The notes below the pieces were generated by a model. That model made no database searches, was not told the DNA's origin, and saw only the letters and a list, made by a program, of their open reading frames with translations. From assembly GCA_963733055.1 (NCBI GenBank), contig CAVTBR010000003.1, forward strand, positions 704,001 through 768,000: a stretch of 64,000 nucleotides of DNA, in the 5' to 3' direction. Shown piece after piece: positions 44,837 through 61,084 of the stretch; position 1 is the first letter of the stretch, and every line of letters starts with the position of its first letter. Source of the DNA: Candidatus Bathyarchaeota archaeon. Lineage in GTDB: Archaea > Thermoproteota > Bathyarchaeia > 40CM-2-53-6. The translations under genes and the position numbers were made by a program.

Positions 44837-45764
44837 TTGATGCATAGGGGGAATCGCCTTCCAGTTTGGGAGGGCAACTAAGCGCAGCTACTTCGGTAAC
44901 GAAATCTCAAAGCAGCCACTGAAGACTCAAGAAATAACCGAGTCTTGCATTACTACAGGTTTCGACTTTCATTTCATCGATGCCGAATGGCAAAGAAACT
45001 ACATGCCCCCAAGCGAACTAGACTCCTTACTCAGTTGGGTTGAGGAACTAGAATCTAACCTAACGATCGTCGTAACCGTCAATGCGAGGCATCGATCCGC
45101 CTTCGATCTGATCGCCGAATACACTGAATCCATGAGACAGCACGATAATGGCGGGCTTTGCTTTGTCGCAGGTAATCCCACGTACCTATGCGAAGAGGAA
45201 TGTGAGTTGGATGGCGAATCTAGAATCCTTGAGCTAGTCAAAACAAGTCGAAGTAAGCTTCCTTCCGCTCCCATATTTCTCGGATCTGAAGTCATGCATC
45301 CGTCGTCATTGCAGGTTGCGGCTAGTTACAACGTCATTCCGTTCATGCTTCTCGGTAAGAGGACGATGAGCACGTTAGCAGAGCGAAATTCCACCGACGG
45401 AGTCTCAGAATCGGCCGTCTATTGTCCCGCCTACTTATCCGCGCACAACGAAAAGAAACTAGTGAAAGCACTGGGACCCTATGCTCTTAGGCGAAGATGG
45501 GTCAGGAGAATGTTGAGAGAACGAGGATTACGGGTTGCGGATGTCAAGTCTCAGATCTCGAACGGTGGATTGACTGAGAGGACGACTGAGAGTTTGCTCG
45601 CGAATGCAATACGCGAGCTCGCCCTGTGCAAGGGAGATCATGCTGAACAAACCCTTCGCGGCCTTTCATCGTTGGGAGTGAGGTACGCCGCGGTGCTACA
45701 GGCGGAGGATAGTGGGGAGGAATTTGAACATCTCCGCAGGCTCGCGACTCAATTCAGTAATTAG
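44837..45764 (+). CDS. hypothetical alpha/beta protein (probable 1-nt indel in G run 44847-44851)
   Basis: Frame of ORF 45003-45764 is open about 50 codons upstream; GGAGG then TTG-ATG at 44837 joins it if one G is removed. Confidence 0.65.
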
Positions 45765-45798
45765 AAAAATGAGAAAAAAGGCGGGAGGAGGGATGGGT

Positions 45799-46407
45799 TT
45801 AGTCGATTTTGATTTCTTTGCCCTTTGGTCTAGGTTGGGTTTTGCGTAGGGTGATTTCTAGGACGCCGTTGTTGTATGAGGCCTTGGTGCTGTCGGGGTC
45901 TACGCCGGTCGGTAGTTGAACTTCCTTGTAGTACTTGTGGTTCGGTGAATCCACTCTGATCGTTAATGCGTCCTCGTTGATGCTGGTCTTTATGTCGGAC
46001 TTCTCGACGCCGGGTAGTTCCGCAACTACGCGCACTTGTGCTTGTTCGTTGATGACATCGACTAAGGGTTCACGGGTTTCTTTTGGTTCCAGGGCTGGTT
46101 GCTGCATGCCGAATGCGCCTGGGCGTCGGGATGGTTTCACGTTGCCGAACTCTTGTACGTTGGGCTTGCCGTCGGGGCCGATAGACATGGAGTAGCCGTA
46201 AACGAAGGGGCCGTACTGCTTCACGGTTGAACCGTCAGGTAGCTTTCTCTCAGTCATCATGTCCTTCGGCATACCCTTGAGCATGTCCTGGAACATGTTC
46301 TCGAACATCTCATCGACGTCGCCGAACCAGCGGTCCATCCAACCGAAAGGAGACTGCCTGCCCTTTCGTGACCTAAACCATTCGGGAAGGAATTCGTCTG
46401 AAGACAT
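45799..46407 (-). CDS. hsp20: archaeal small heat shock protein Hsp20
   Basis: GPFVYGYSMSIGPDGKP, REPLVDV, AELPGVEK, ASYNNGVLEI. Confidence 0.96.
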   Translation of the reverse strand: MSSDEFLPEWFRSRKGRQSPFGWMDRWFGDVDEMFENMFQDMLKGMPKDMMTERKLPDGSTVKQYGPFVYGYSMSIGPDGKPNVQEFGNVKPSRRPGAFGMQQPALEPKETREPLVDVINEQAQVRVVAELPGVEKSDIKTSINEDALTIRVDSPNHKYYKEVQLPTGVDPDSTKASYNNGVLEITLRKTQPRPKGKEIKID

Positions 46408-46436
46408 TTTCTTAATTCACCTCTGATAGGCTAGTT

Positions 46437-46485
46437 TGTTACCTTTAGTAACAGTCCGATATAAATATTGTTACGTAAGGTAACG
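46437..46485 (-). promoter_or_regulatory. hsp20 promoter: TATA box flanked by two GTTAC-N5-GTAAC operator-like palindromes
   Basis: TGTTAC-CTTTA-GTAACA 46437-46453; ATTTATAT on minus strand 46459-46466; TGTTAC-GTAAG-GTAACG 46469-46485. Confidence 0.7.
46471..46478. repeat. 8-bp palindromic target site duplication TTACGTAA, copy 1
   Basis: Identical 8-mer at 49323-49330 and 52117-52124, each abutting GGTAAC/GTTACC element ends. Confidence 0.9.
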
Positions 46486-46540
46486 TCAAGTCCTCGGTTG
46501 ATAGGTTAGTTTCTTGTTGTTGTAAAAAAGCGGTTGATAA

Positions 46541-47110
46541 CTAGGACTTTGACTTAGGTCGGAGTAGAAGTGCGTCGGTCGTATCTTGCCTAATATCTGT
46601 AAGGCCCTTTCTTATCGAGGACTTATACGCATCGGAATATCGAGCATATCGGTTGTTGAGCGAATCGAAAACTCGAAGGTGCTCATCATCATAGCCAACT
46701 ACTGTGAACATATGCTTGTTGCCATTAAGTTGGCCCGTGTAAACATCGTGCGATGGAACGGAGATTATGTAAGGTAGTCCGTCATCCACACCTTTTTCCA
46801 GAGCGATAATTAGGTCTTCGAATGTCTTGAAGTCGGATGCGGGAAAATGTTTAGGCGTTCGTGACCAAGCTAAGTCTTCATGCGTCGAAAGAGGCGGCTC
46901 TGTGTAAGACAAAAGCCCAATGTCTGACTCAGGTTTTCGCATTCGTGCATTACACGCTGATATGAAAACTTCAGAAAGCGCATTTTGGTTTATCTTCGAA
47001 TCAGGTACGTGATAACGCGTAACGGCTTCAACATTCGCAAATGTACACCACCACCAATCTGCTTGCCGTACGCCGAAAGGGAAATCGTCGAACCTTGGTA
47101 TGCACTTCAT
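46541..47110 (-). CDS. papain-fold (C39-like) peptidase, cargo
   Basis: VRQADWWWC...KHMFTVVGYD...RVFDS gives Q-C-H-D catalytic order; start overlaps the transposase stop. Confidence 0.65.
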   Translation of the reverse strand: MKCIPRFDDFPFGVRQADWWWCTFANVEAVTRYHVPDSKINQNALSEVFISACNARMRKPESDIGLLSYTEPPLSTHEDLAWSRTPKHFPASDFKTFEDLIIALEKGVDDGLPYIISVPSHDVYTGQLNGNKHMFTVVGYDDEHLRVFDSLNNRYARYSDAYKSSIRKGLTDIRQDTTDALLLRPKSKS

Positions 47111-48261
47111 GTAAGCTCTTTCATGTTTCTTGCTTCTTTTGCGTTTTGGATGAGCGTTAGCCACTTGTTTTCACCGCTTATGGTTATTCCCGCTACTTCT
47201 GCCGGAGTTTTGCCGTTCAATGCCGTGTGTGGTCGTATGTAGTTGTGAAATAATTGATAGCCCCTAAGTATGGGACTGTCGGGCTTTTCGAGGGTACGCA
47301 TTACACGTTCTCGGTCACGGATTTCCCCGTTCATGCGTTCCATTTTGTTATTGTGAACCGTTCCATCGAAGCGTATGTCGCGTATGTGTTCGGGACGATT
47401 CGCTAGTTTGCTTGTGTAGAACTCGTCGTTGAATGCTTCATGAAAGTTAGGCGCACCGTCAGTAATGAGGGTTCTGGGGTTCTTGTGTGCGATTGCCTTA
47501 GCTTGTTTAAACAGCGGTCGAATGTCAGCCGAATACTTGGTATCGGCTACCTCTTGCGCTATCCAGAAACGGGTTTGGTCATCCATTAGAGCGTAGAGAT
47601 ATTTCATGTTGCCATGAACTTTCAGAAAGAGTTCATCGGCTCTCCAAGTATCGCTTACCTGCGGTGTGATTTTGTCTAAGTATTTCTCCATCAGAGCCGT
47701 GTATTTCTCAATCCAGTTGTAAACGGTTTGGTGGCTAACCTGAGTGCCCAACAGTCTGAGTGACCGAGAAGTATTTCTGAGGCTCTCACCGGAGAAATAA
47801 AGTTGCATAGCCGTTGTGATAGCTTGCGGGTTGTGCTTCATGCGCTCGAAACCTAGATTCACGCTAAAGGTTCTATGACAATCCGCACAGAGGAATCGCT
47901 GAATGTCGCCGTACTTGTTGTGTCTGCACCCGAACTTCTTCAGGTTTGAGGATTGGCAGAATAGGCAGGATGTAATCGAAACGGGTTCAATCACGTTTTC
48001 TTTGACTTTCTCCCTTATCCTGAGGCTGAACTCTACAGCCCAAATGTGCTTACATCTTAAAATCTGGTGAAGCTCTGAGGCTCGGTAGTGGAAATCTAAA
48101 CAATCACAAATCCATGAACCGTTCTCGCGACGAATAACATCATACATTCCATGTCCGTTCTGAGAAGCTACCTTGTAACTGCGCTCATCCATGCGCTGAA
48201 TTTGGTTTGGTTTCTCAGCGATTAGTCGGCCTCTTTCTTCACGGGAGAGAACTGTTTGCAT
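47107..48261 (-). CDS. IS6-like DDE transposase with N-terminal SWIM finger and zinc ribbon
   Basis: CDCLDF..CKH (SWIM), CLFC..CADC, HTH (LYFSGESLRNTSRSL), WRADE / LITDG / NNKMERMNG, HNYIRPH. Confidence 0.92.
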   Translation of the reverse strand: MQTVLSREERGRLIAEKPNQIQRMDERSYKVASQNGHGMYDVIRRENGSWICDCLDFHYRASELHQILRCKHIWAVEFSLRIREKVKENVIEPVSITSCLFCQSSNLKKFGCRHNKYGDIQRFLCADCHRTFSVNLGFERMKHNPQAITTAMQLYFSGESLRNTSRSLRLLGTQVSHQTVYNWIEKYTALMEKYLDKITPQVSDTWRADELFLKVHGNMKYLYALMDDQTRFWIAQEVADTKYSADIRPLFKQAKAIAHKNPRTLITDGAPNFHEAFNDEFYTSKLANRPEHIRDIRFDGTVHNNKMERMNGEIRDRERVMRTLEKPDSPILRGYQLFHNYIRPHTALNGKTPAEVAGITISGENKWLTLIQNAKEARNMKELT

Positions 48262-48271
48262 CGCTTTCACG

Positions 48272-48323
48272 GCTACGATACTGTAGCCTAAGTTTAATAT
48301 AAGGCTTACTACGATATCGTAGC
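48272..48323. promoter_or_regulatory. divergent promoter with paired operator-like repeats (element 1)
   Basis: GCTACGATACTGTAGC and ACTACGATATCGTAGC, 36 bp apart, around TTTAATATAA. Confidence 0.65.
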
Positions 48324-48333
48324 TCTGAGAACA

Positions 48334-48516
48334 ATGGTCAGAAGAGAGATACTCGGCAAATCCGAGCGTAAAGTACTAGAGGCATACTTCAACGGTAAAC
48401 GAATGAAAGGATACACAACGCTCTTCACCCGAATACGGCAACTCGGACTAACCGCAATAATCGAGGGATGTGAACACGATCTAGCTTTGTTGAGAAAGTT
48501 GAAGGGCGTACTCTAG
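48334..48516 (+). CDS. conserved 60-aa element protein (putative regulator)
   Basis: Homologous to 50994-51185 (MVR..ILG..ER..LE.Y..G...KGYT.L..RIR..GL.AIIEGCEHDL). Confidence 0.85.
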   Translation: MVRREILGKSERKVLEAYFNGKRMKGYTTLFTRIRQLGLTAIIEGCEHDLALLRKLKGVL

Positions 48517-49207
48517 CCTAGAACCTGTGCTTCAACGCTTCCATTAGGTGTAGGCTTAAGTTCGATATGATGTAACTTGCCGTCAACGCTTGTTCTCAAA
48601 GTCAGCCTGAAAGGGGTTAGGTCTAGTCCAGATGCACCGGAAGCAACTCCCAAGAAGATTGTATCAACGCTTTCGATTGTAAAGGCTAACAGTACTGTAG
48701 TTTGCCCGCCGTTTCTAGGAATTGTCTCTCTAGATACATGATGGATTCTGTCTCCACGGAAAGCAATTGTATATGGTTGATGTTTGCCCGCTGTTATTTC
48801 CAAATCACCTTCAGGGATGTGCGCATAGGTCAGTGGAAGCTCAACTGGGAAGAAATGCTTACTTGGCGGTGTCGCAGCCGAGGGAACATTAGTCACGGTA
48901 CAATCCTTCGCGTCTGCCCTCCCGTTGTTTTGCAATTTCAGATACGTGAGGAACGCTTTCTTTGGGCCAAGGTTACTAACCTTACCCTTCTCATCTAGAA
49001 ATGTCACATTCTTCGTTTGATATTCCATTGGAGGAAGGGCTTCAAACTTTAGCTTCGGTTTTAGAAAAAAATGCGATAGACTAGCCAAAATGCTGGTATC
49101 CCAAAAAGGATACCAGTCTCTATAATCAAAATCAACTCCCCCCAACTCGCTAAGGGAGGAATCCCCGCTGTCGTCGTGGTCGCATTTTGTAGGGGAAACA
49201 TGGACAT
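48513..49207 (-). CDS. membrane-anchored cargo protein (probable indel in A run 49065-49071)
   Basis: ATG 49207 frame gives MSMFPLQNATTTT...LILIIETGILFGIPAFWLVYR (TM), joining LKPKLKF... of the listed ORF; the listed start 49310 lies inside the TIR. Confidence 0.6.
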
Positions 49208-49322
49208 CTTCTGTTCCGATTCCATATTTAACGCCTCTTAAGAAAGAAGCTGATTTCGAGCCATCAACCGAAATTTTACAACGAGAAGAACTAAGGCTAT
49301 CAACCGTCATCTTGACGTTACC

Positions 49323-49330
49323 TTACGTAA
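49323..49330. repeat. TTACGTAA target duplication, copy 2
   Basis: Centre of GTTACC-TTACGTAA-GGTAAC junction. Confidence 0.9.
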
Positions 49331-49426
49331 GGTAACGTTACCTTAACGGTTGACGGCTCAAATTCTTGGTGCTGTTACCGTTCGGTTGATTTACCGCCAA
49401 GCCTCTCAAGCAGACAGGGCTTACTC

Positions 49427-49795
49427 TTGTATGCTTACGCTATCGGCACTACCATATTGGGAATCGTGGCAGGTGTATGTGCCGCTTTATTCCAAAAACG
49501 CAAAGAAAGCGTAGATGACGATATTGGATACCTAGAAGTTGGACAATGGTCCGCTCAATTGTTTACCGTGGAGCATTTCAATGAGCGATTTGCTAACTAT
49601 CACATCTACATAGACCCTAGTACAATACCAAACACGCCAGAGGCGACAATGACAGCCCCCTATGCTGCTTGCAGATATTTTCTAAGTAGGTTGAAAGCAA
49701 TTAGAGACACTAGACGATTCACAGTTACCCTTTCCACCATTATCGCTGCTATTGCGATAGGCACAGCCGCGATACTATTCGCGTTTGGATTTTGA
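49427..49795 (+). CDS. two-TM cargo protein
   Basis: Hydrophobic N- and C-terminal helices; convergent with the transposase. Confidence 0.6.
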   Translation: MYAYAIGTTILGIVAGVCAALFQKRKESVDDDIGYLEVGQWSAQLFTVEHFNERFANYHIYIDPSTIPNTPEATMTAPYAACRYFLSRLKAIRDTRRFTVTLSTIIAAIAIGTAAILFAFGF

Positions 49796-50917
49796 TGCGT
49801 TCTGAATCAGCGTTAGCCACTTATTTTCGCCCTCAACTTTGATTCCTGCAACTTCCGCAGGTGTGCGACCTTTCAAACCCTCGTGCGGTCGAACAAAGTT
49901 GTGATAGATTTGCATACCCGTTAGAATTGGTGTATCAGGAATCTCAAGAGTACGCATGACCTTCTCACGGTCCCTGAGTTCTCCGTTCATTCTTTCCATC
50001 TTATTGTTGTGGACTTGACCGTCAATGCGGATTTCTCGTATGTGTTCGGTTCCCGTTGGAGTCCAGAATTCTTTCTTGTACGCTTCATGGAAGTTTGGTG
50101 CACCGTCAGTTATCAGTGTCTTAGGTTGTTTACCTGCAATGTGTTTTCCGTGTTGAAAGAGTGAGCGAACATCAGCCGTGTACTTTGTATCGGCTACTTC
50201 TTGGGCTATCCAGAAGCGGGTTTGGTCATCCATGAGGGCATACAGGTATTTCATGTTCCCTTTCACTTTAAGAAATAGTTCATCCGCTCGCCATGTGTCA
50301 GATACGTTCGGTGTGATCTGGTTAGCGTAGTTCTGCATCAATGTCGTGTATTTCTTTATCCACATGAAAACCGTCTTGTAACTCACCTGAACCCCAAGCA
50401 ACCGTAGCGATCTAGCCGTATTCCTAAGCGATTCGCCTGAGAAGTACAACTGCATCGCGGTCGTTACTCCTTGCGGGCTGTGCTTCATCCGTTCAAATCC
50501 AACATTCACGCTGAAGGTGCGATCACAACTCACGCATAGAAAACGTTGAATGTCACCGTACTTGTTGTGGCGTATGCCGAACCTTTTCAGAGCCTTATCG
50601 GAATGACAGTAAATGCAAGCAGTAATTTCGACAGGTCGAATGATTACGTTCTCCCGTACCTTTTCTCGTAGCTGCTCGCGAATTTGACAGGCGATGATAT
50701 GTTTGCAGCGAACAATATGTCGTTGCTCTAATGCGCGGTAGTGGAAATCTAGGCAGTTACATAGCCACGAACCGCTTTCTCTATGGACTACATCATACAT
50801 TCCATCCCCACGCTGAGAAGCGACTTTGTAGTGACTTTCATCCATCTGCTGGATTTGGCTTGGATTCTCAGCGATAAGTCGCCCCTTTTCTTCACGGGAG
50901 AGAACCGCTTTCTGCAT
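49775..50917 (-). CDS. IS6-like SWIM-DDE transposase, copy 2
   Basis: CNCLDF..CKH, CIYC..CVSC, WRADE / LITDG / NNKMERMNG. Confidence 0.92.
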   Translation of the reverse strand: MQKAVLSREEKGRLIAENPSQIQQMDESHYKVASQRGDGMYDVVHRESGSWLCNCLDFHYRALEQRHIVRCKHIIACQIREQLREKVRENVIIRPVEITACIYCHSDKALKRFGIRHNKYGDIQRFLCVSCDRTFSVNVGFERMKHSPQGVTTAMQLYFSGESLRNTARSLRLLGVQVSYKTVFMWIKKYTTLMQNYANQITPNVSDTWRADELFLKVKGNMKYLYALMDDQTRFWIAQEVADTKYTADVRSLFQHGKHIAGKQPKTLITDGAPNFHEAYKKEFWTPTGTEHIREIRIDGQVHNNKMERMNGELRDREKVMRTLEIPDTPILTGMQIYHNFVRPHEGLKGRTPAEVAGIKVEGENKWLTLIQNASKSKRE

Positions 50918-50931
50918 GTCTTTCTACCTAA

Positions 50932-50982
50932 TGCAATATTGCTGCATAAGTAATATATAACACTTACTGCAATACTGCTGCA
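50932..50982. promoter_or_regulatory. divergent promoter with paired operator-like repeats (element 2)
   Basis: TGCAATATTGCTGCA and TGCAATACTGCTGCA, 36 bp apart, around TAATATATAA. Confidence 0.65.
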
Positions 50983-50993
50983 CGGGTGATAGA

Positions 50994-51185
50994 ATGGTCC
51001 GAAAACAGATACTAGGCGATTGGGAACGCAATATCCTAGAATCATATCTGAAAGGCGAGAAACTAAAAGGCTATACAGCGTTGTTATCTAGAATACGAAG
51101 CATGGGATTAAAGGCAATCATTGAAGGGTGCGAGCACGATTTGGTGATACTGAAACGCCTCGCCAAATCTGAGGCGACAATGTGA
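50994..51185 (+). CDS. conserved 63-aa element protein (putative regulator)
   Basis: Paralog of 48334-48516 at the same position in the element. Confidence 0.85.
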   Translation: MVRKQILGDWERNILESYLKGEKLKGYTALLSRIRSMGLKAIIEGCEHDLVILKRLAKSEATM

Positions 51186-51856
51186 GTAAATACATGCTTG
51201 GAGTAAGCCGGTTAAGGCTCGCCATTTGCGCGATCGTCATTTTATGTATCGGTGCAAGTCTATTTATTGAAGGCGGAATGTACCCGAAGGCAACTCTCTA
51301 TTCGCTTAACTATAGCTACCTAAGCTATGCCTTTCTCGCTCTTGCGTTTGTTTTCATATCTCCAACTATCTTGAACGCAGCTAAAGCGTGGAGAGCGATA
51401 GTCAACGATCTTGCAACTAAGAGAAAACTGGGCAAAGATGATTGGAATATCGAGGAGACGCGTGGAATCTTTGCTCTGGGCATCATAGGGACCATCATAG
51501 TGGTGAGAACGGACAAAAACGTAATCGCCATGGATTCTACTGGGTACTTGTTGTTTGCCATGAATGTCATGTTGGCCTGTTGGGTAGCCTATTCAATTTG
51601 CATGGCAATTGCACTACCTAACGAGTGGATTAGTCAACGAGTAAGAATTTGGAGTTTCCTAAGTGCTCAACTGTTATTTGTTTTCGGTGTCGTAATAACT
51701 GTCGCCGTTGGTTTGACGGGTTTTGTGACATATGTTTTAAGTGATTTCAAGGCAACTCCTCTTTATCCTTGGATAATCGGAATAACCGTTTGCCTTTCAA
51801 GTTTCGGAGTTGCCTTGCTTTTCTTCGAACCGAGAGAAGAATTTCAGACCGCGTAA
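51182..51856 (+). CDS. multi-pass membrane cargo protein
   Basis: About six hydrophobic segments; start overlaps the small gene's stop. Confidence 0.7.
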   Translation: MSKYMLGVSRLRLAICAIVILCIGASLFIEGGMYPKATLYSLNYSYLSYAFLALAFVFISPTILNAAKAWRAIVNDLATKRKLGKDDWNIEETRGIFALGIIGTIIVVRTDKNVIAMDSTGYLLFAMNVMLACWVAYSICMAIALPNEWISQRVRIWSFLSAQLLFVFGVVITVAVGLTGFVTYVLSDFKATPLYPWIIGITVCLSSFGVALLFFEPREEFQTA

Positions 51857-52116
51857 TGTTAAGCCGCTTGAGCACGAGAGAATCCCGATGACGACTAAAG
51901 GTTGCAGATTATGGTTCACTATGATGTAGACTGTGCCAATCACAAGTAGGAAAAGCGAACAAAAGAACGCTCCCAAATAGAAATCTCGTAACTCCTTCTT
52001 GTTCGTTCACTTTTACGCTTCTATTCCTCCTTAGTCTAGACCGATAGAATCCTTCCATCAACCGGACGGTAACAGTTGGATTCTATCCAGTTTTCAACCG
52101 TAGAGGTAACGTTACC

Positions 52117-52124
52117 TTACGTAA
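52117..52124. repeat. TTACGTAA target duplication, copy 3
   Basis: Centre of GTTACC-TTACGTAA-GGTAAC junction. Confidence 0.9.
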
Positions 52125-52184
52125 GGTAACGTGAAGTTCACGGTTGATAGGATATGCTGTGAAAAATCGGTTGATACTCTCTCA

Positions 52185-52658
52185 CTAACCGTGAATACGA
52201 TGTTTCAGCCAAAATTGAATTGCCACGGTTAATCCAGCGGCTATGAATAATCCTATGATGGCTCCAATCTGCCCATCAAGAAGATAGCCACCCACAGGGA
52301 ATATAATTCCGAGAATGCTGAATGTCGCAGTTCTCCAAGACGAGATTTGTGTCTGACCTACGTAAACCGACTTACCAGTAAGGAATGTGTAACCCACCAA
52401 GATAATGCAATAGCCAGAAAAGAAAACCACCCAAGACACTACTTCGTAGGACGCACCACCAATGAAATGAATACTGGCGGAAACGATTCCCGAAATCAGG
52501 AGCGCTGCAAGGTAGATTGGTGAAGTCTTGAACTTAGACTTTGGCGCTATCTTACCCGCACGATCGTGTTTAGAGGAAAGCGGGGCTTGGCAGACAGTGC
52601 AGTAGCTGTATTGATCGCTGACTTTTGACCCGCATTTTCCGCATTTAACGGTGCGCAA
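52185..52658 (-). CDS. zinc-ribbon plus four-TM cargo protein
   Basis: CGKCG..CTVC then four hydrophobic helices. Confidence 0.7.
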   Translation of the reverse strand: MRTVKCGKCGSKVSDQYSYCTVCQAPLSSKHDRAGKIAPKSKFKTSPIYLAALLISGIVSASIHFIGGASYEVVSWVVFFSGYCIILVGYTFLTGKSVYVGQTQISSWRTATFSILGIIFPVGGYLLDGQIGAIIGLFIAAGLTVAIQFWLKHRIHG

Positions 52659-52728
52659 CGATTTGACTTCGAACTAGTGCTTTGAGCTGCGTTCTGAATT
52701 AAGGTTGATTCCTTCCTGACATAGTAGG

Positions 52729-53133
52729 CTAGAATGGATGCTTTGGCCTGTCCTTGATCGCGTAATATGGCTTTTGAAAGTGTAGAAGGATTGCGACCGC
52801 CACAACTAATACGACTAGAATGAGAATCGCTAGATAGTCGAAATGGGTAAGCGTTGCTGTTGCGTTCGACGAAACGGTGATGGTACGAACTACCGTATAT
52901 TGACTCTCAGCGGTGATGCATCCTTCATCAAAACCACATGGAACAGTTGCCACCGTCTCAGGTACAACGTAAGTAAAACTAACAGCTGTGCCTAGAGTTG
53001 TTGTCTGTGAAGTCATCGACTGAAGAGAGGATTGAAGAAGCAATTCAAAATGACCGAATACAAGCAAAACAGCAACTACGGCTAGAAGAAAGAGATAGCG
53101 ACGCAGATGCGACTTCGGCGGCGGTCTCATCAA
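52729..53133 (-). CDS. two-TM cargo protein with Thr-rich loop
   Basis: TM - Thr/Ser-rich segment with a Cys pair - TM; start overlaps the transposase fragment's stop. Confidence 0.65.
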   Translation of the reverse strand: MMRPPPKSHLRRYLFLLAVVAVLLVFGHFELLLQSSLQSMTSQTTTLGTAVSFTYVVPETVATVPCGFDEGCITAESQYTVVRTITVSSNATATLTHFDYLAILILVVLVVAVAILLHFQKPYYAIKDRPKHPF

Positions 53134-53405
53134 ATCCTAGAACCAGTAGCATTCTTAGAAGCGTTTTGTATTAGAGTTAACCACTTGTTTTCACCGTCAA
53201 CTGTGATTCCTGCCGCTTCACTTGGAGTGTGACCGTTTAACGCTTCATGTGGACGAATGTAGTTGTGGAAGATTTGCATACCTGACAGAATCGCTGTATC
53301 GGGCTTTTCTAAGGTGCGCATGACCTTCTCTCTTTGGCGGAGCTCGCCGTTCATGCGCTCCATCTTGTTATTGTGTCGAACATCATCAAACGCAATATCT
53401 CCGAT
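53130..53405 (-). pseudogene. 3' fragment of SWIM-DDE transposase
   Basis: DIAFDDVRHNNKMERMNGELR...HNYIRPH...ENKWLTLIQNA; similarity stops near 53405. Confidence 0.88.
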
Positions 53406-53699
53406 AGGTTCGCTTCGTGCTTCTAGCCGAGTTGCGTGGAATTCTTTCCTTTTCCGGCATGGTTCAAAACTGCGTTTCGAAGCTGGAGAAAATCCCGCTT
53501 AGATGGATTGGTCAAGAGCGATTCCACTTAGTAGAACGGAACGGCAGTTGGTGGAACACTTCGGAGGGTGTTTTTCTCGGACGACCTGATACTTTGACGG
53601 AACGATTCAAGGACTTTGAAGGCTTCAATGCGAGGTTTTGGGTTTCAAAGTGAGGTTTTTGCGATTCAAGATGGCGGCGCCGCGGCGCGTGATGTTGCC

Positions 53700-54029
53700 A
53701 TGCCAGATCATACCACCAAGGAGTTCAATGATGAAGTCAAATTGGCTATTGATAATGCGATCTACACGCTACTAGGGCAGCAGGTTCTCAGGGCTGTATA
53801 CGATCACTTGAGAGAGCGTTACGATGTAACGGGAGATGAGCTCCCTTATCGGTTGGACACCTTGTTCGAGACGCTTGAAGCCACTTTCGGGCTTAAGGGT
53901 GCATTAACCCTTGGCCGAGTGATCGCGAGGTGCGTTTATGCTCGAATGGGACTGAGATTCATCGAACTACCAAATTATACACTTCAGGATTATTTGGAGC
54001 GCGCCAAGCAGCAATTAGCCCTAACGTAG
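53700..54029 (+). CDS. NitrOD5/DUF3227-like small helical protein
   Basis: AIDNAIYTLLG..V...Y.HL...Y......LPYRLDTLF..L...FG pattern. Confidence 0.65.
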   Translation: MPDHTTKEFNDEVKLAIDNAIYTLLGQQVLRAVYDHLRERYDVTGDELPYRLDTLFETLEATFGLKGALTLGRVIARCVYARMGLRFIELPNYTLQDYLERAKQQLALT

Positions 54030-54449
54030 TACCCAACCTAGGTTCTCTGGAGGTGACTGAAGCGCCAACAGATTTTGTGTTGAATCCTTCGGCTGGTAAC
54101 TAACATCTTCATTTGGTGGTTGCGGCTGCATGAGGTCTTCGGCGAGTATGCGCTTCAACTCTTCGACGTGCTCTGTGAAAGTGCGCTCGATCTTAAGGTC
54201 TAATGGAACATTCGCTTTAGCGTACAGTTTCTTGACTATCACCCTTCCCAAGGTCTCCCCTCCAACTCCGAAAGCGCCCTTAAGGGACGCAAACAGGGTG
54301 TCCAAGCGGTAGGGCATCTCATCACGAGTGATTCCAAGAAACGCCTGATAATGGTACCAAAATGCTGCCGTTACTCTGTTTCCCAAGACTTCGGAAATAG
54401 CTTCGTCTACAGAATCAATGAGAAGATCATTGAAGTCAGTAAGATGCAT
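54021..54449 (-). CDS. NitrOD5/DUF3227-like protein, convergent paralog
   Basis: Shares DE.PYRLDTLF..L...FG..G..LGRVI with 53700-54029. Confidence 0.65.
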   Translation of the reverse strand: MHLTDFNDLLIDSVDEAISEVLGNRVTAAFWYHYQAFLGITRDEMPYRLDTLFASLKGAFGVGGETLGRVIVKKLYAKANVPLDLKIERTFTEHVEELKRILAEDLMQPQPPNEDVSYQPKDSTQNLLALQSPPENLGWVLR

Positions 54450-54530
54450 TCTTGGCAAGGAGAAAAGGCAAATAAGATTACTCAAAATCTTGCAGTTAAG
54501 ACTTGCGTAAACTCAAGCTTCTCTTCTCGG

Positions 54531-54905
54531 TTATTCGCCGAGGTACGTCGATCCCAGCATTCGAATGAGGTCTGAAACTGCGCTAACGAACGGAGTCGTT
54601 ACTTTCGGATCGTAACTCAAGATTACGATGAGTTTCTTGACCCTGAAGAATACGAGGAGGACCTTGTCGTACCTAATCGTCACCGACTCCAATGCACCGA
54701 GTATAACCTGTAGCTTCTCCGCAGCGTCGACGAGAATGGGCGGCATTATTTGAATGAATCTGCGGTCATCCTCCTCGGCGGACACACTTTCTACTCCTTC
54801 TCGCATTTTCGAGAGGACGACGTGAAATTGGCTGTCTACAATTCCAACGTACCGAAGCTTGCCGTCCCGTCTAAATGCCTCATTCGCGAATTTCTCGACG
54901 TCCAA
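54531..54905 (-). CDS. roadblock/profilin-like small protein (DUF6659-like)
   Basis: LRYVGIVD..MREGV...LG.LESVTIRYDKV..VFF pattern. Confidence 0.65.
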   Translation of the reverse strand: MDVEKFANEAFRRDGKLRYVGIVDSQFHVVLSKMREGVESVSAEEDDRRFIQIMPPILVDAAEKLQVILGALESVTIRYDKVLLVFFRVKKLIVILSYDPKVTTPFVSAVSDLIRMLGSTYLGE

Positions 54906-55350: not shown

Positions 55351-56073
55351 TCACCCGCTTGCCTGGTTCATCCGTAACATTATTCCTTGGTCCAGTATCT
55401 GAAACGGCATCCATACCTCCGGGTGACTGCCGAGACGATACTTGGTTATCCTGAGCATCCGTTCCAAACGTTCCCCCGCTTCAATTTTCATCTCCACAAT
55501 GAGGTCGAAGAGTGAGTATAGTTGAGCAAGTGTTGAAGGGGAATGAATACCCGAGGTTAAGGATACGACCGCGGACCCATGTTGCCTAACCTTAGCTAAA
55601 ACGGAGGGAACGAGTCTAAGCGCCGTCTCTTCCCCGATCGTGCTAATCAAAGTTGACAGCGAATCAAAAATGACAATACTCCACCCGCTACCAAGCTCCT
55701 CGTAGAATTTCCGAATAGCAATCTGGACATCTGTAACGTTTAATGGGCAAAGCCTGCTTCCAAACTGCGTGTCGGTATACTCTTGGTTCCCGTCTTCCAA
55801 CCAAGAGTACATATCCACCAATCTCAAGTTTGTTCGAATGTATTCCTGAACATCCCACCCATGCCCCAACATACGTTCCACTATTTGAGCGGACGAACGC
55901 TCGGTTGACATGTAGATCACTTTGCGTCCGGCCTTGAGGAGCTCGTACGCATACTGTTTGCACAACACCGACCTTCCGCTCCCAGGCGGTCCCAAGTAAA
56001 GGCCCACAATATGCGGATCGGCCTCTCGGATGCTTAGTAGTTCTCGCATCTCACTAGTCAAAGGAGGGTTCAT
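55351..56073 (-). CDS. KaiC/RAD55-like ATPase with variant Walker A
   Basis: GPPGSGRS, YMSTE, LVDMYS, IFDSLSTL, LRITKYR. Confidence 0.85.
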   Translation of the reverse strand: MNPPLTSEMRELLSIREADPHIVGLYLGPPGSGRSVLCKQYAYELLKAGRKVIYMSTERSSAQIVERMLGHGWDVQEYIRTNLRLVDMYSWLEDGNQEYTDTQFGSRLCPLNVTDVQIAIRKFYEELGSGWSIVIFDSLSTLISTIGEETALRLVPSVLAKVRQHGSAVVSLTSGIHSPSTLAQLYSLFDLIVEMKIEAGERLERMLRITKYRLGSHPEVWMPFQILDQGIMLRMNQASG

Positions 56074-60337: not shown

Positions 60338-61084
60338 TTAGTCTGCGTGACCATTGTTCCAGTTCGTAATAACACCGAGAGCTTCTGTCAGACTTCCGAC
60401 CCTTGCGTCCGGGTTCACGAAAGACATACCTTCGATCGGTTTGCGAAGTATATGAATCGAACGCATTCCCATCCTCTTTGAACCCACGACATCCGCTTCC
60501 ATTGAGTCACCCACAAAAATCGAATCAGATGCCTTCACTCCCAAGGAACTCAAAGCCTGAGTGAAGATTTCTTGGCGCGGCTTCCTGATCCTCAGCGCAG
60601 CAGAACTCAGAATGGTCTTGAAGAATCCGTTTAGGTTACGCCGTTCTAATATCGCGTGCACAGCATAGTCGCTCTTTGCGTTTGAGACTATCCCCATGAC
60701 GTAACCCTGCCCCTCGAGGGCGGCTAGTGTTTCGATTGTATCGGGGTAGACCTGCCAAGACTCAATTTCCGGTTTGAAGAACTCAACCATAGCATTCGTT
60801 GGCAGTTCCATGCCTTGATGCTCTAATCCGGACTTCGTTAGAGTCTTTGAGATGATTTCTTCCATCGGAATCTCAATTTTACGTAAGTTCGCTTCGTCGG
60901 AGGCGTGGTTGAATTGTTTTGCGAATTTTTTCGCGAATTTCTCTGAATCCAGTTTCAGACCTTGCGTGCTAAGATAGTTGTAGAGTTGTTGGAGGTTCGC
61001 TTGGAAGATATCCTCCCAGGGTCGGTCTAGGTGTACCAACGTGTCACCGAGGTCGAGAAAGACCGCCCTGACCAACGCTATCAC
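60338..61084 (-). CDS. HAD family hydrolase
   Basis: DLGDTL, VSN, RKP, VGDSMEADV. Confidence 0.92.
   Translation of the reverse strand: MIALVRAVFLDLGDTLVHLDRPWEDIFQANLQQLYNYLSTQGLKLDSEKFAKKFAKQFNHASDEANLRKIEIPMEEIISKTLTKSGLEHQGMELPTNAMVEFFKPEIESWQVYPDTIETLAALEGQGYVMGIVSNAKSDYAVHAILERRNLNGFFKTILSSAALRIRKPRQEIFTQALSSLGVKASDSIFVGDSMEADVVGSKRMGMRSIHILRKPIEGMSFVNPDARVGSLTEALGVITNWNNGHAD

Follow-up and report, generated by a model that had tools for sequence, protein, structure and literature searches.

Cargo-carrying IS6-related transposons stack in register beside an hsp20 promoter and probably home to a promoter landmark in a genus of Bathyarchaeia

The stretch of DNA analyzed here (the window: 64,000 nucleotides of a Candidatus Bathyarchaeota archaeon genome, contig CAVTBR010000003.1, positions 704,001 to 768,000) contains a tandem array of transposons upstream of hsp20, a gene for a small heat-shock protein. 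Two complete elements and one truncated element are separated by the same 8-bp sequence, TTACGTAA, which starts at 46471, 49323 and 52117, coordinates that an earlier, sequence-only reading had given and that we reproduced. From comparison with related genomes we conclude, with a probability of roughly 0.75, that these are autonomous cargo transposons that home with base-pair precision to a slot upstream of certain promoters, and that repeated insertion at the proximal position builds arrays. In the mechanism we propose, a single IS6-related DDE transposase, with a putative N-terminal SWIM domain and a zinc ribbon, would drive elements of 2–6 kb that could insert anywhere and would prefer, with base-pair precision, promoters marked by a palindrome. 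The staggered cut would fall 18 nt from this palindrome at hsp20, htpX, cdc48 and roughly twelve further loci; each newcomer would cut the same two bonds and duplicate the same 8 bp. Older elements would be displaced outward, the promoter-proximal one being the youngest and the distal ones decaying. Because insertion would be repeated at one fixed position, stacking would be in register, with the local 8-mer at every junction.

The evidence that carries this reading is a fixed distance. On the hsp20 side of the array lie, in order, a palindrome, GTTACCTTTAGTAAC, an 18-nt spacer containing the TATA box, and the 8-mer. The window's own genome holds only eight GTTAC-N5-GTAAC sites, one of which arises where the first 8-mer meets the tip of element 1, the element nearest hsp20. 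Beyond three of the other seven, at hsp20, at a gene for an M48/HtpX peptidase and at a third locus with the 8-mer CATCTGAG, an 8-mer and then an element tip come after 18 nt. The HtpX site (contig C3, 639657-639703, gene from 639726; peptidase M48 by Pfam) is a second array, with the same palindrome and 18-nt spacer, the 8-mer ACCGCCGT and transposase fragments only. A search for TTAC-N5-GTAAC-N{12,40}-GGTAACG in 23 genomes of the genus (the window's own and 22 others, all metagenome assemblies; below, G-numbers denote genomes of the genus, C-numbers contigs and L-numbers labelled loci) returned 39 matches. The gap from palindrome to tip was exactly 26 nt (18 + 8) in 37 of them and 25 and 27 nt in the others, and the reversed pattern, used as control, matched once. 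Fifteen of the 39 matches are hsp20 orthologues; among the remaining 24, the gap is 26 nt in 22, and these 22 cover ~16 loci with unrelated 8-mers.

CDC48-type AAA+ ATPase genes, identified with Pfam in two genomes, are among the palindrome loci, and the 8-mers differ from locus to locus (ACCGCCGT, CATCTGAG, CTTTCGGC, GACGTTAG and others). The arrays built on GACGTTAG (G006) and CTTTCGGC (G011) end 18 nt from a TTTAC-N5-GTAAC palindrome, and for a G019 array (TGTAAGAA/TTCTTACA) at first thought to lack the landmark, a matching palindrome site was found on another contig. The landmark consensus is (G/T)TTAC-N5-GTAAC; in the hsp20, htpX and cdc48 promoters it is placed downstream of the TATA box and ahead of the gene, and the cut precedes the TATA box by 4–5 nt. 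The cdc48 sites keep the palindrome distance of 18 nt, yet their TATA-like box stands ~3 nt closer to the duplication; because the TATA box shifts and this distance is kept, the palindrome, rather than the TATA box, would be the ruler. With the cut ahead of the TATA box and one 8-mer left in place next to the promoter, each insertion should spare the promoter, and such placement would amount to a safe-haven strategy.

The interval between TATA box and start codon is where an archaeal repressor blocks polymerase recruitment, and the palindrome is probably, by analogy, the operator of a Phr-like heat-shock repressor; the Pyrococcus Phr site itself differs from the landmark motif. In the portions consulted of a paper on Pyrococcus Phr (PMC10746257), this repressor recognizes a palindrome and acts negatively on genes induced by heat; it has sites in front of HSP20 and VAT1, and a KaiC-domain protein is among its proposed additional targets.

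Arrays recur at hsp20 throughout the genus. The transposase family was found in 20 of the 22 other genomes, often clustered, and an hsp20 orthologue in 17 of the 22. A GGTAAC tip begins right after the 8-mer in 17/17 hsp20 sites, or in 18 genomes with the compact site of G003 included, and the stricter GGTAACG tip stands at the fixed distance in 15, the window's own counted. The hsp20-adjacent site is occupied or scarred in every readable genome of the genus. The compact sites, in G002, G003 and G005, which consist of TTACTAAA-GGTAAC and ~50 unalignable nt before a divergent DnaJ-type zinc-finger gene, may be scars. At positions 356-652 of L178 (G005:C15) and at the matching sites of G002, G003, G008 and G012, which form one subclade, hsp20 is divergent to this small CxxCxGxG gene; its homologue lies elsewhere (C1:1412860) in the window's clade, so the genome has been rearranged at the array.

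The first element beside hsp20 varies from species to species, and so does the 8-mer: TTACGTAA, TTACGTCA, TTACGCCA, TTACGACA, TTACGGAA, TTACATGA, TTACTAAA and TTACTACT. Within one species' array the same 8-mer stands at all junctions, the exceptions being single-base variants (G014, G021) and one inverted copy (G004). The G019 hsp20 8-mer, TTACGTCA, is non-palindromic and directly repeated, and thus a target duplication rather than part of the ends. Back-to-back tips spaced as GTTACC-N8-GGTAAC occur in 13 of the 23 genomes of the genus versus none of 36 genomes of the family's other genera. The proposal of the sequence-only reading that the window's elements are independent insertions at one site is therefore upheld: the first element differs between species, and collecting homologues with their ends and flanks showed arrays at hsp20 across the genus, not solitary copies only.

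The elements are real transposons that make 8-bp target duplications and were recently mobile. G011 carries two 2748-bp copies that are 100% identical, one in the proximal hsp20 slot (TTACGTAA) and the other solitary (ATCCCGAG); G017 carries two 2644-bp copies, also 100% identical, in one array, in opposite orientations and ~5 kb apart, with other elements between them and one of the two in the proximal slot; and G004 has a 3.9-kb copy bordered by TAAGAAAG. The window's own genome has a 585-bp derivative without a transposase gene at C2:505890-506474, with typical ends and the duplication CCAGTATG, and further solo ends and a transposase fragment lie in the region. Near the solitary copies with ATCCCGAG, TAAGAAAG and CCAGTATG the palindrome was looked for and none was found. 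The site specificity claimed by the sequence-only reading must thus be narrowed: the palindrome distance is fixed in 37/39 matches, but these solitary copies sit in unrelated duplications.

A duplication scan in more distant hosts gave 66 candidate elements, 2.0-6 kb in length, whose 8-bp duplications are perfect and whose ends are tipped with GG, mostly GGTTCTGT..., and hosts include Nitrososphaeria, other Bathyarchaeia and Methanoperedens. An inverted-repeat search had left L122 (Nitrosotalea devanaterra), L143 (Nitrososphaera) and L157 (Atabeyarchaeia) without boundaries, and the duplication scan later supplied those of L143. Elements of the family measure 2.0-6 kb and carry 2-4 open reading frames (ORFs) beyond the transposase.

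The order of elements within arrays points to growth at the promoter-proximal end. At hsp20-type promoters, six of the eight multi-element arrays have an intact transposase gene in the proximal slot, whereas in none of the eight is the most distal recognizable element intact, and in both genomes with identical copies (G011, G017) one copy is in the proximal slot. New copies thus appear to enter there. The proximal transposase gene or fragment has its 3' end toward the palindrome at 21 of 24 sites. Orientation specificity, also claimed by the sequence-only reading, therefore holds as a bias and not as a rule: three of the 24 are reversed, and one array contains the same element both ways. The IS6 family moves through cointegrates, by a replicative or a targeted conservative route. 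Inverted 8-mers were seen in G004 and G019; together with the inverted identical copies of G017, they look like the trace expected, by analogy, of intramolecular replicative transposition of the IS6 type. Such transposition yields inversions in the IS6 family, according to the parts consulted of a paper on that family (PMC7986276).

The features of the array in the window are as follows.

45799..46407, minus strand: hsp20, small heat-shock protein (Pfam HSP20, E 5.4e-13), whose promoter is the landing site
46438..46452: landmark palindrome GTTACCTTTAGTAAC, 15 bp, operator-like, between TATA box and start codon of hsp20
46453..46470: 18-nt spacer agtccgatataaatattg with the hsp20 TATA box
46471..46478: target duplication copy 1, TTACGTAA
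46479..49322, minus strand: element 1, 2844 bp, with ~70-bp ends at 46479-46548 and 49253-49322
46541-47164, minus strand: element 1 cargo, C39-like peptidase
47107-48270, minus strand: element 1 transposase, likely ATG at 48261
48271-48333: element 1 divergent promoter, two CTACGATA-type palindromes around a TATA box
48334-48516, plus strand: element 1 ORF60
48513-49310, minus strand: element 1 cargo, 265-aa ORF
49323..49330: target duplication copy 2, TTACGTAA
49331..52116, minus strand: element 2, 2786 bp
49427-49795, plus strand: element 2 cargo, 122-aa membrane ORF
49775-50917, minus strand: element 2 transposase
50918-50993: element 2 divergent promoter, GCAATATTGC and GCAATACTGC palindromes around a TATA box
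50994-51185, plus strand: element 2 ORF63
51182-51856, plus strand: element 2 cargo, 224-aa membrane ORF
52117..52124: target duplication copy 3, TTACGTAA
52125..53405, minus strand: element 3, truncated, promoter-side end intact
52185-52658, minus strand: element 3 cargo, 157-aa zinc-ribbon membrane ORF
52729-53133, minus strand: element 3 cargo, 134-aa ORF
53130-53363, minus strand: element 3 transposase remnant, last 77 aa only

The element ends are ~65-70 bp long, imperfectly inverted and each begin with GGTAACGT; comparing the two ends of each complete element gave 51 matches in 70 positions for element 1 and 45 in 70 for element 2, in agreement with the imperfect terminal inverted repeats described before. 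Each end contains two subterminal CGGTTGA(T) repeats, and CGGTTGAT matches the window 13 times against 2.4 expected, a count reached by no shuffle. All three transposase genes of the window lie on the minus strand, so the common orientation reported for this array is correct. Reads gave one joint between the two ends of element 2; one of its sides spans only 25 nt, and a repeat artefact is its likeliest cause. The similarity of element 3 to other copies at the DNA level stops at ~53405-53444, inside the transposase gene. To its right, convergent overlapping ORFs (53616-54029, plus strand; 54021-54485, minus strand) are paralogues, 37% identical and without a Pfam match, whose family has some ten copies spread over the chromosome; since they belong to a multi-copy chromosomal family, the DNA right of element 3 is host DNA. 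Flank homology with the closest relative picks up again at 54519, and a KaiC-like ATPase gene (55351-56073, minus strand) lies on the far side of the array. The 33-bp flank on the hsp20 side had been considered as part of a larger mobile element; this was rejected at hsp20, since there the flank supplies a syntenic host gene with its promoter and 5' leader.

Both complete elements contain the core described by the sequence-only reading, a transposase with SWIM-type, zinc-ribbon, helix-turn-helix and DDE regions and a divergent small gene. The transposases (387 amino acids in element 1, 380 in element 2) are 72% identical and match Pfam DDE_Tnp_IS240 (PF13610) with 52.8 and 53.8 bits against a cutoff of 27. 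With the GG tips and the 8-bp duplications, this supports the IS6 relation proposed earlier; the scores to the NCBIfam IS6 equivalog NF033587, 109.8 and 97 bits, are under its cutoff of 125. In an alignment of 46 homologues, D212, D271 and E308/E313 are invariant, and the four ribbon cysteines C101, C104, C128 and C131 are invariant or nearly so. SWIM domains have a CxCxnCxH signature on a beta-beta-beta-alpha unit; in the SWIM-type CxC...CxH motif here, C53, C55 and H73 are invariant and C71 nearly so, with strands predicted ahead of CxC and a helix from CxH onward. Pfam SWIM (PF04434) did not match the window transposases even at E 10; a precomputed PF04434 match exists for 5 of the 120 relatives listed. 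The AlphaFold (AF2) model of the transposase (predicted local distance difference test score, pLDDT, 80.8) resembles DDE transposases and integrases, the best match being the IS256-family transposase ISCth4 (E 8e-7), and no PDB sequence matched at E 1. The family is large, with 5279 protein clusters at E <= 1e-20 that bear only generic names.

The divergent ORF encodes 60 or 63 residues in the two complete elements. The model of the ORF60 protein (pLDDT 90.7) has three helices, and no fold match was found in the PDB at E <= 0.001, nor any match in Pfam, NCBIfam, PADLOC or Atlas. The region between the transposase gene and ORF60 always contains two palindromes flanking a TATA box, and across five subtypes the palindrome half-sites covary with residues 28-32 of the small protein. 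Because the two change together, we read the small protein as a putative repressor of the element's own divergent promoter. In the intergenic region at positions 3657-3729 of L091 (G019:C18), the operators of the ORF60 subtype, GTTACGATATAGTAAC and GTTACCATATCGTAAT, have the half-sites of the host landmark with a spacer one base longer. A search by tblastn for a chromosomal ORF60 paralogue, as a candidate operator-binding host factor, found none. The target is common to all subfamilies despite their differing subterminal repeats and ORF60 specificities, so the selector should be a conserved part of the transposase or a host factor. The landmark may be read by the transposase, with the SWIM-type domain or the zinc ribbon as candidate contacts, or by a host protein bound at the site, such as the heat-shock repressor or TBP/TFB.

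Cargo varies in every element and includes the C39-like peptidase and several small membrane or zinc-ribbon proteins. The six cargo proteins of the window show no mutual similarity (blastp, E 0.01), which bears out the statement that the cargo is unrelated, and a PADLOC search for defence systems matched no cargo ORF.

Could the resident elements, rather than the promoter, guide the next insertion? A transposase bound to a resident tip might direct insertion to the adjoining 8 bp, as in IS30 and IS911, the first hit at hsp20 having come through the tip-like operator half-site GGTAAC. The geometry fits: a genus-wide search for facing tips (CGTTACC-N{0,24}-GGTAACG) gave 34 sites with a spacer of 8 nt in 31, and an in-register insertion would attack exactly the bonds that the transposase cleaves at resident ends. 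The tip of this genus, GGTAACG, is unlike the family's usual GGTTCTG and equals the operator half-site; at hsp20 and cdc48 the 8-mer begins with TTAC, and with the tip it rebuilds a second GTTAC-N5-GTAAC palindrome. The consulted parts of a paper on IS30 (PMC9333248) describe dual targets, either palindromic hot spots or the element's own inverted repeats. However, most arrays with a readable outer flank begin at a distance of 18 nt from the palindrome, a regularity not expected from end-targeting on its own, and it is because outer flanks at other loci show this distance that we demoted end-directed stacking as the sole explanation. Moreover, a native second operator is no general feature, given that most 8-mers lack an initial TTAC, and intact or identical copies are proximal, whereas end-targeting would use any junction. 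Elements with unlike tips also share arrays: GGTAACG, GGTGGCG and GGTTCTG occur in one array with one 8-mer at the htpX site of G002, and GGCTCTG, GGTGCTG and GGCTCTT do so in G017:C5, beside TTTACCTGGGGTAAC. A resident tip thus cannot be the main guide, and we regard this explanation as unlikely.

Recognition of the 8-bp palindrome TTACGTAA itself, the site favored by the sequence-only reading, is very improbable: although it stands in three in-register copies in the window and at the hsp20 site of several other genomes, the 8-mer varies by species at the orthologous site and is unrelated at other loci, while the palindrome and the TATA-containing spacer of 18 nt stay constant, and only 3 of the 34 TTACGTAA copies in the genome, all in the array, adjoin GGTAACGT-type ends. 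The window holds four copies (46471, 49323, 52117 and 60879) against 0.46 expected, and at least four occurred in 1 of 100 shuffles; the fourth (60879-60886) is ordinary sequence with no transposon ends around it, unrelated to the array. Both inner junctions are perfect 24-bp palindromes, ACGTTACC-TTACGTAA-GGTAACGT, with no others in the 2.88-Mb genome. We considered this junction as a core site of tyrosine-recombinase type and dropped the idea, as the spacer acts as a duplication and no recombinase is present. Just as improbable is an array that arose as a chimeric assembly of alternative alleles or as a tandem duplication that later diverged, since the same architecture recurs in 15 independently assembled genomes at hsp20 and at ~16 other loci, on several contigs of 0.5-1.4 Mb, and a 72% identity between transposases with unrelated cargo does not fit duplication in place.

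Several points weigh against homing to a promoter landmark. The sequences are all metagenome-assembled, and short-read contigs (150-210 nt, low depth) from a DNA run in which 18% of the words were present bridged no junction. Genomes of one genus are non-independent samples, and with this shared history the counts overstate independence. The mutual distance of palindrome and TATA box is almost always fixed, so that the choice of ruler comes mainly from cdc48 in two related genomes. Many of the ~17 loci have no obvious gene behind the palindrome, and the heat-shock link is shown for three gene families only. The junction 8-mers CACTGAAC, GTTGATTG, AGAGAAAA and TTTTCTCA were tied to no palindrome in the DNA examined. 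A search for a clean empty site among the hsp20 loci of the genus, the check in relatives suggested by the sequence-only reading, found none. Finally, a site in the window's own genome (C1:383049-383094) is unoccupied though two GTTAC-N5-GTAAC palindromes flank its TATA box; its distal palindrome ends in CGTAAC, not GGTAAC, and its spacing is one nt shorter than that of hsp20.

IS26 and other IS6 elements choose targets with little sequence preference. As judged by enzyme and duplication length, the present elements are placed near the IS6 family, with which they share the DDE core matching DDE_Tnp_IS240, GG tips, the 8-bp duplication and, in relatives, a CTGT-type motif in the ends (tip GGTTCTGT...); they fall outside its score cutoff and its short, cargo-free definition. 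In the consulted parts of two papers (Varani et al. 2021, PMC7986276; Harmer and Hall 2019, PMC6807381), IS6 elements are short (about 0.7-0.9 kb, up to 1.8 kb), with a transposase gene only and ends of 15-20 bp; the long, clostridial clades h and i have N-terminal zinc-finger extensions; ISDsp3 is the single passenger-carrying member; the archaeal members are short; and no site-specific members are described in those parts. By contrast, the elements described here measure 2-6 kb, carry cargo on both sides, have ~65-bp ends with two subterminal repeats, a SWIM-type domain and a divergent small gene, and would home to a promoter landmark.

In behavior the closest counterpart, by analogy, is Tn7 at attTn7, without the accessory proteins or the immunity. 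The Tn7 system uses TnsD, is orientation-specific and stacks unlike elements at attTn7. Shared traits are a fixed distance from a landmark that is left intact, a safe haven, an orientation bias and a duplication re-made with each insertion; the parts consulted of PMC11014353 report the fixed distance of Tn7 from glmS and its target immunity. Here, however, there is one transposase per element, the duplication is 8 bp and not 5 bp, the landmark is a promoter operator, the hosts are archaeal and there is no sign of immunity, against which the identical copies ~5 kb apart in one array argue. Profile scans found no TnsA, TnsB, TnsC or TnsD/TniQ homologues among the element ORFs.

With IS30 and IS911 the elements share a palindromic landmark and tips abutted at duplication-length spacing, but IS30 junctions join copies of one element and are hyper-reactive, short-lived and made in a copy-out-paste-in pathway, whereas here unlike elements are joined and junctions persist across species. 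Eukaryotes have promoter-targeting retrotransposons, of which Ty3 and Ty1 go to Pol III genes and Tf1 to the promoters of stress genes, and P elements insert at hsp70 promoters. These promoter-targeting elements resemble ours in inserting just upstream of the transcription start, in preferring stress genes and possibly in tethering, which is hypothetical here; enzymes and hosts are unrelated. The integron comparison made by the sequence-only reading is apt as an analogy, in that unrelated gene units form a linear array at one site with the intact and apparently newest copy usually beside the anchor. It goes no further: here every unit is a whole transposon that brings along its own ends and transposase, there is no attC or attI, and a Pfam scan of the ORFs at 45003-54905 found no tyrosine integrase or recombinase. 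A literature search that covered neither ISfinder, nor paper supplements, nor many subscription journals found no prior description of such elements or of archaeal promoter-homing transposons.

Beyond the genus, we examined a family-wide set of elements without the GGTAAC tip, mostly from other lineages and including four from within the genus (L097, L104). An outward TATA-like heptamer starts 1-14 nt from the duplication in 20 of 86 outer flanks, versus 2 of 84 in a window 200 nt further out; 18 of 46 sites have such a flank. Both counts come from a crude motif definition applied to AT-rich genomes. The heptamer most often starts at nt 6, and this positional peak suggests that the family as a whole tends to insert just upstream of promoters, in which case the heat-shock palindrome would be a genus-level refinement. 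In L144 and L148, which are distant relatives, elements lie 15-16 nt from a different palindrome, GTTATAAC, and other lineages may use other landmarks.

A broader picture can be drawn, which we put forward tentatively, as rather less probable than the homing itself. Single-protein cargo transposons with thousands of members would, archaea-wide, home to the upstream edge of promoters, as a prokaryotic counterpart of Ty3 and Tf1. In this genus, the SWIM domain, or a tether to the repressor or TBP/TFB, would read a heat-shock operator and the element would integrate 18 bp away, turning stress promoters into growing arrays; the GGTAAC tip might even let the host repressor sit on the ends and so tie transposition to heat shock.

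Should the selector belong to the transposase, these elements would represent a compact system for sequence-guided DNA insertion, and a SWIM domain would have gained a new role. If it is a host transcription factor, they would be an archaeal transposon tethered to the transcription machinery, of which we know no earlier case. The landmark also provides a candidate heat-shock operator for Bathyarchaeia. Transposase relatives are common in soil archaea, and the arrays are natural records of repeated insertion, from which target choice, the missing immunity and the gathering of accessory genes at stress promoters may be read in uncultured archaea.

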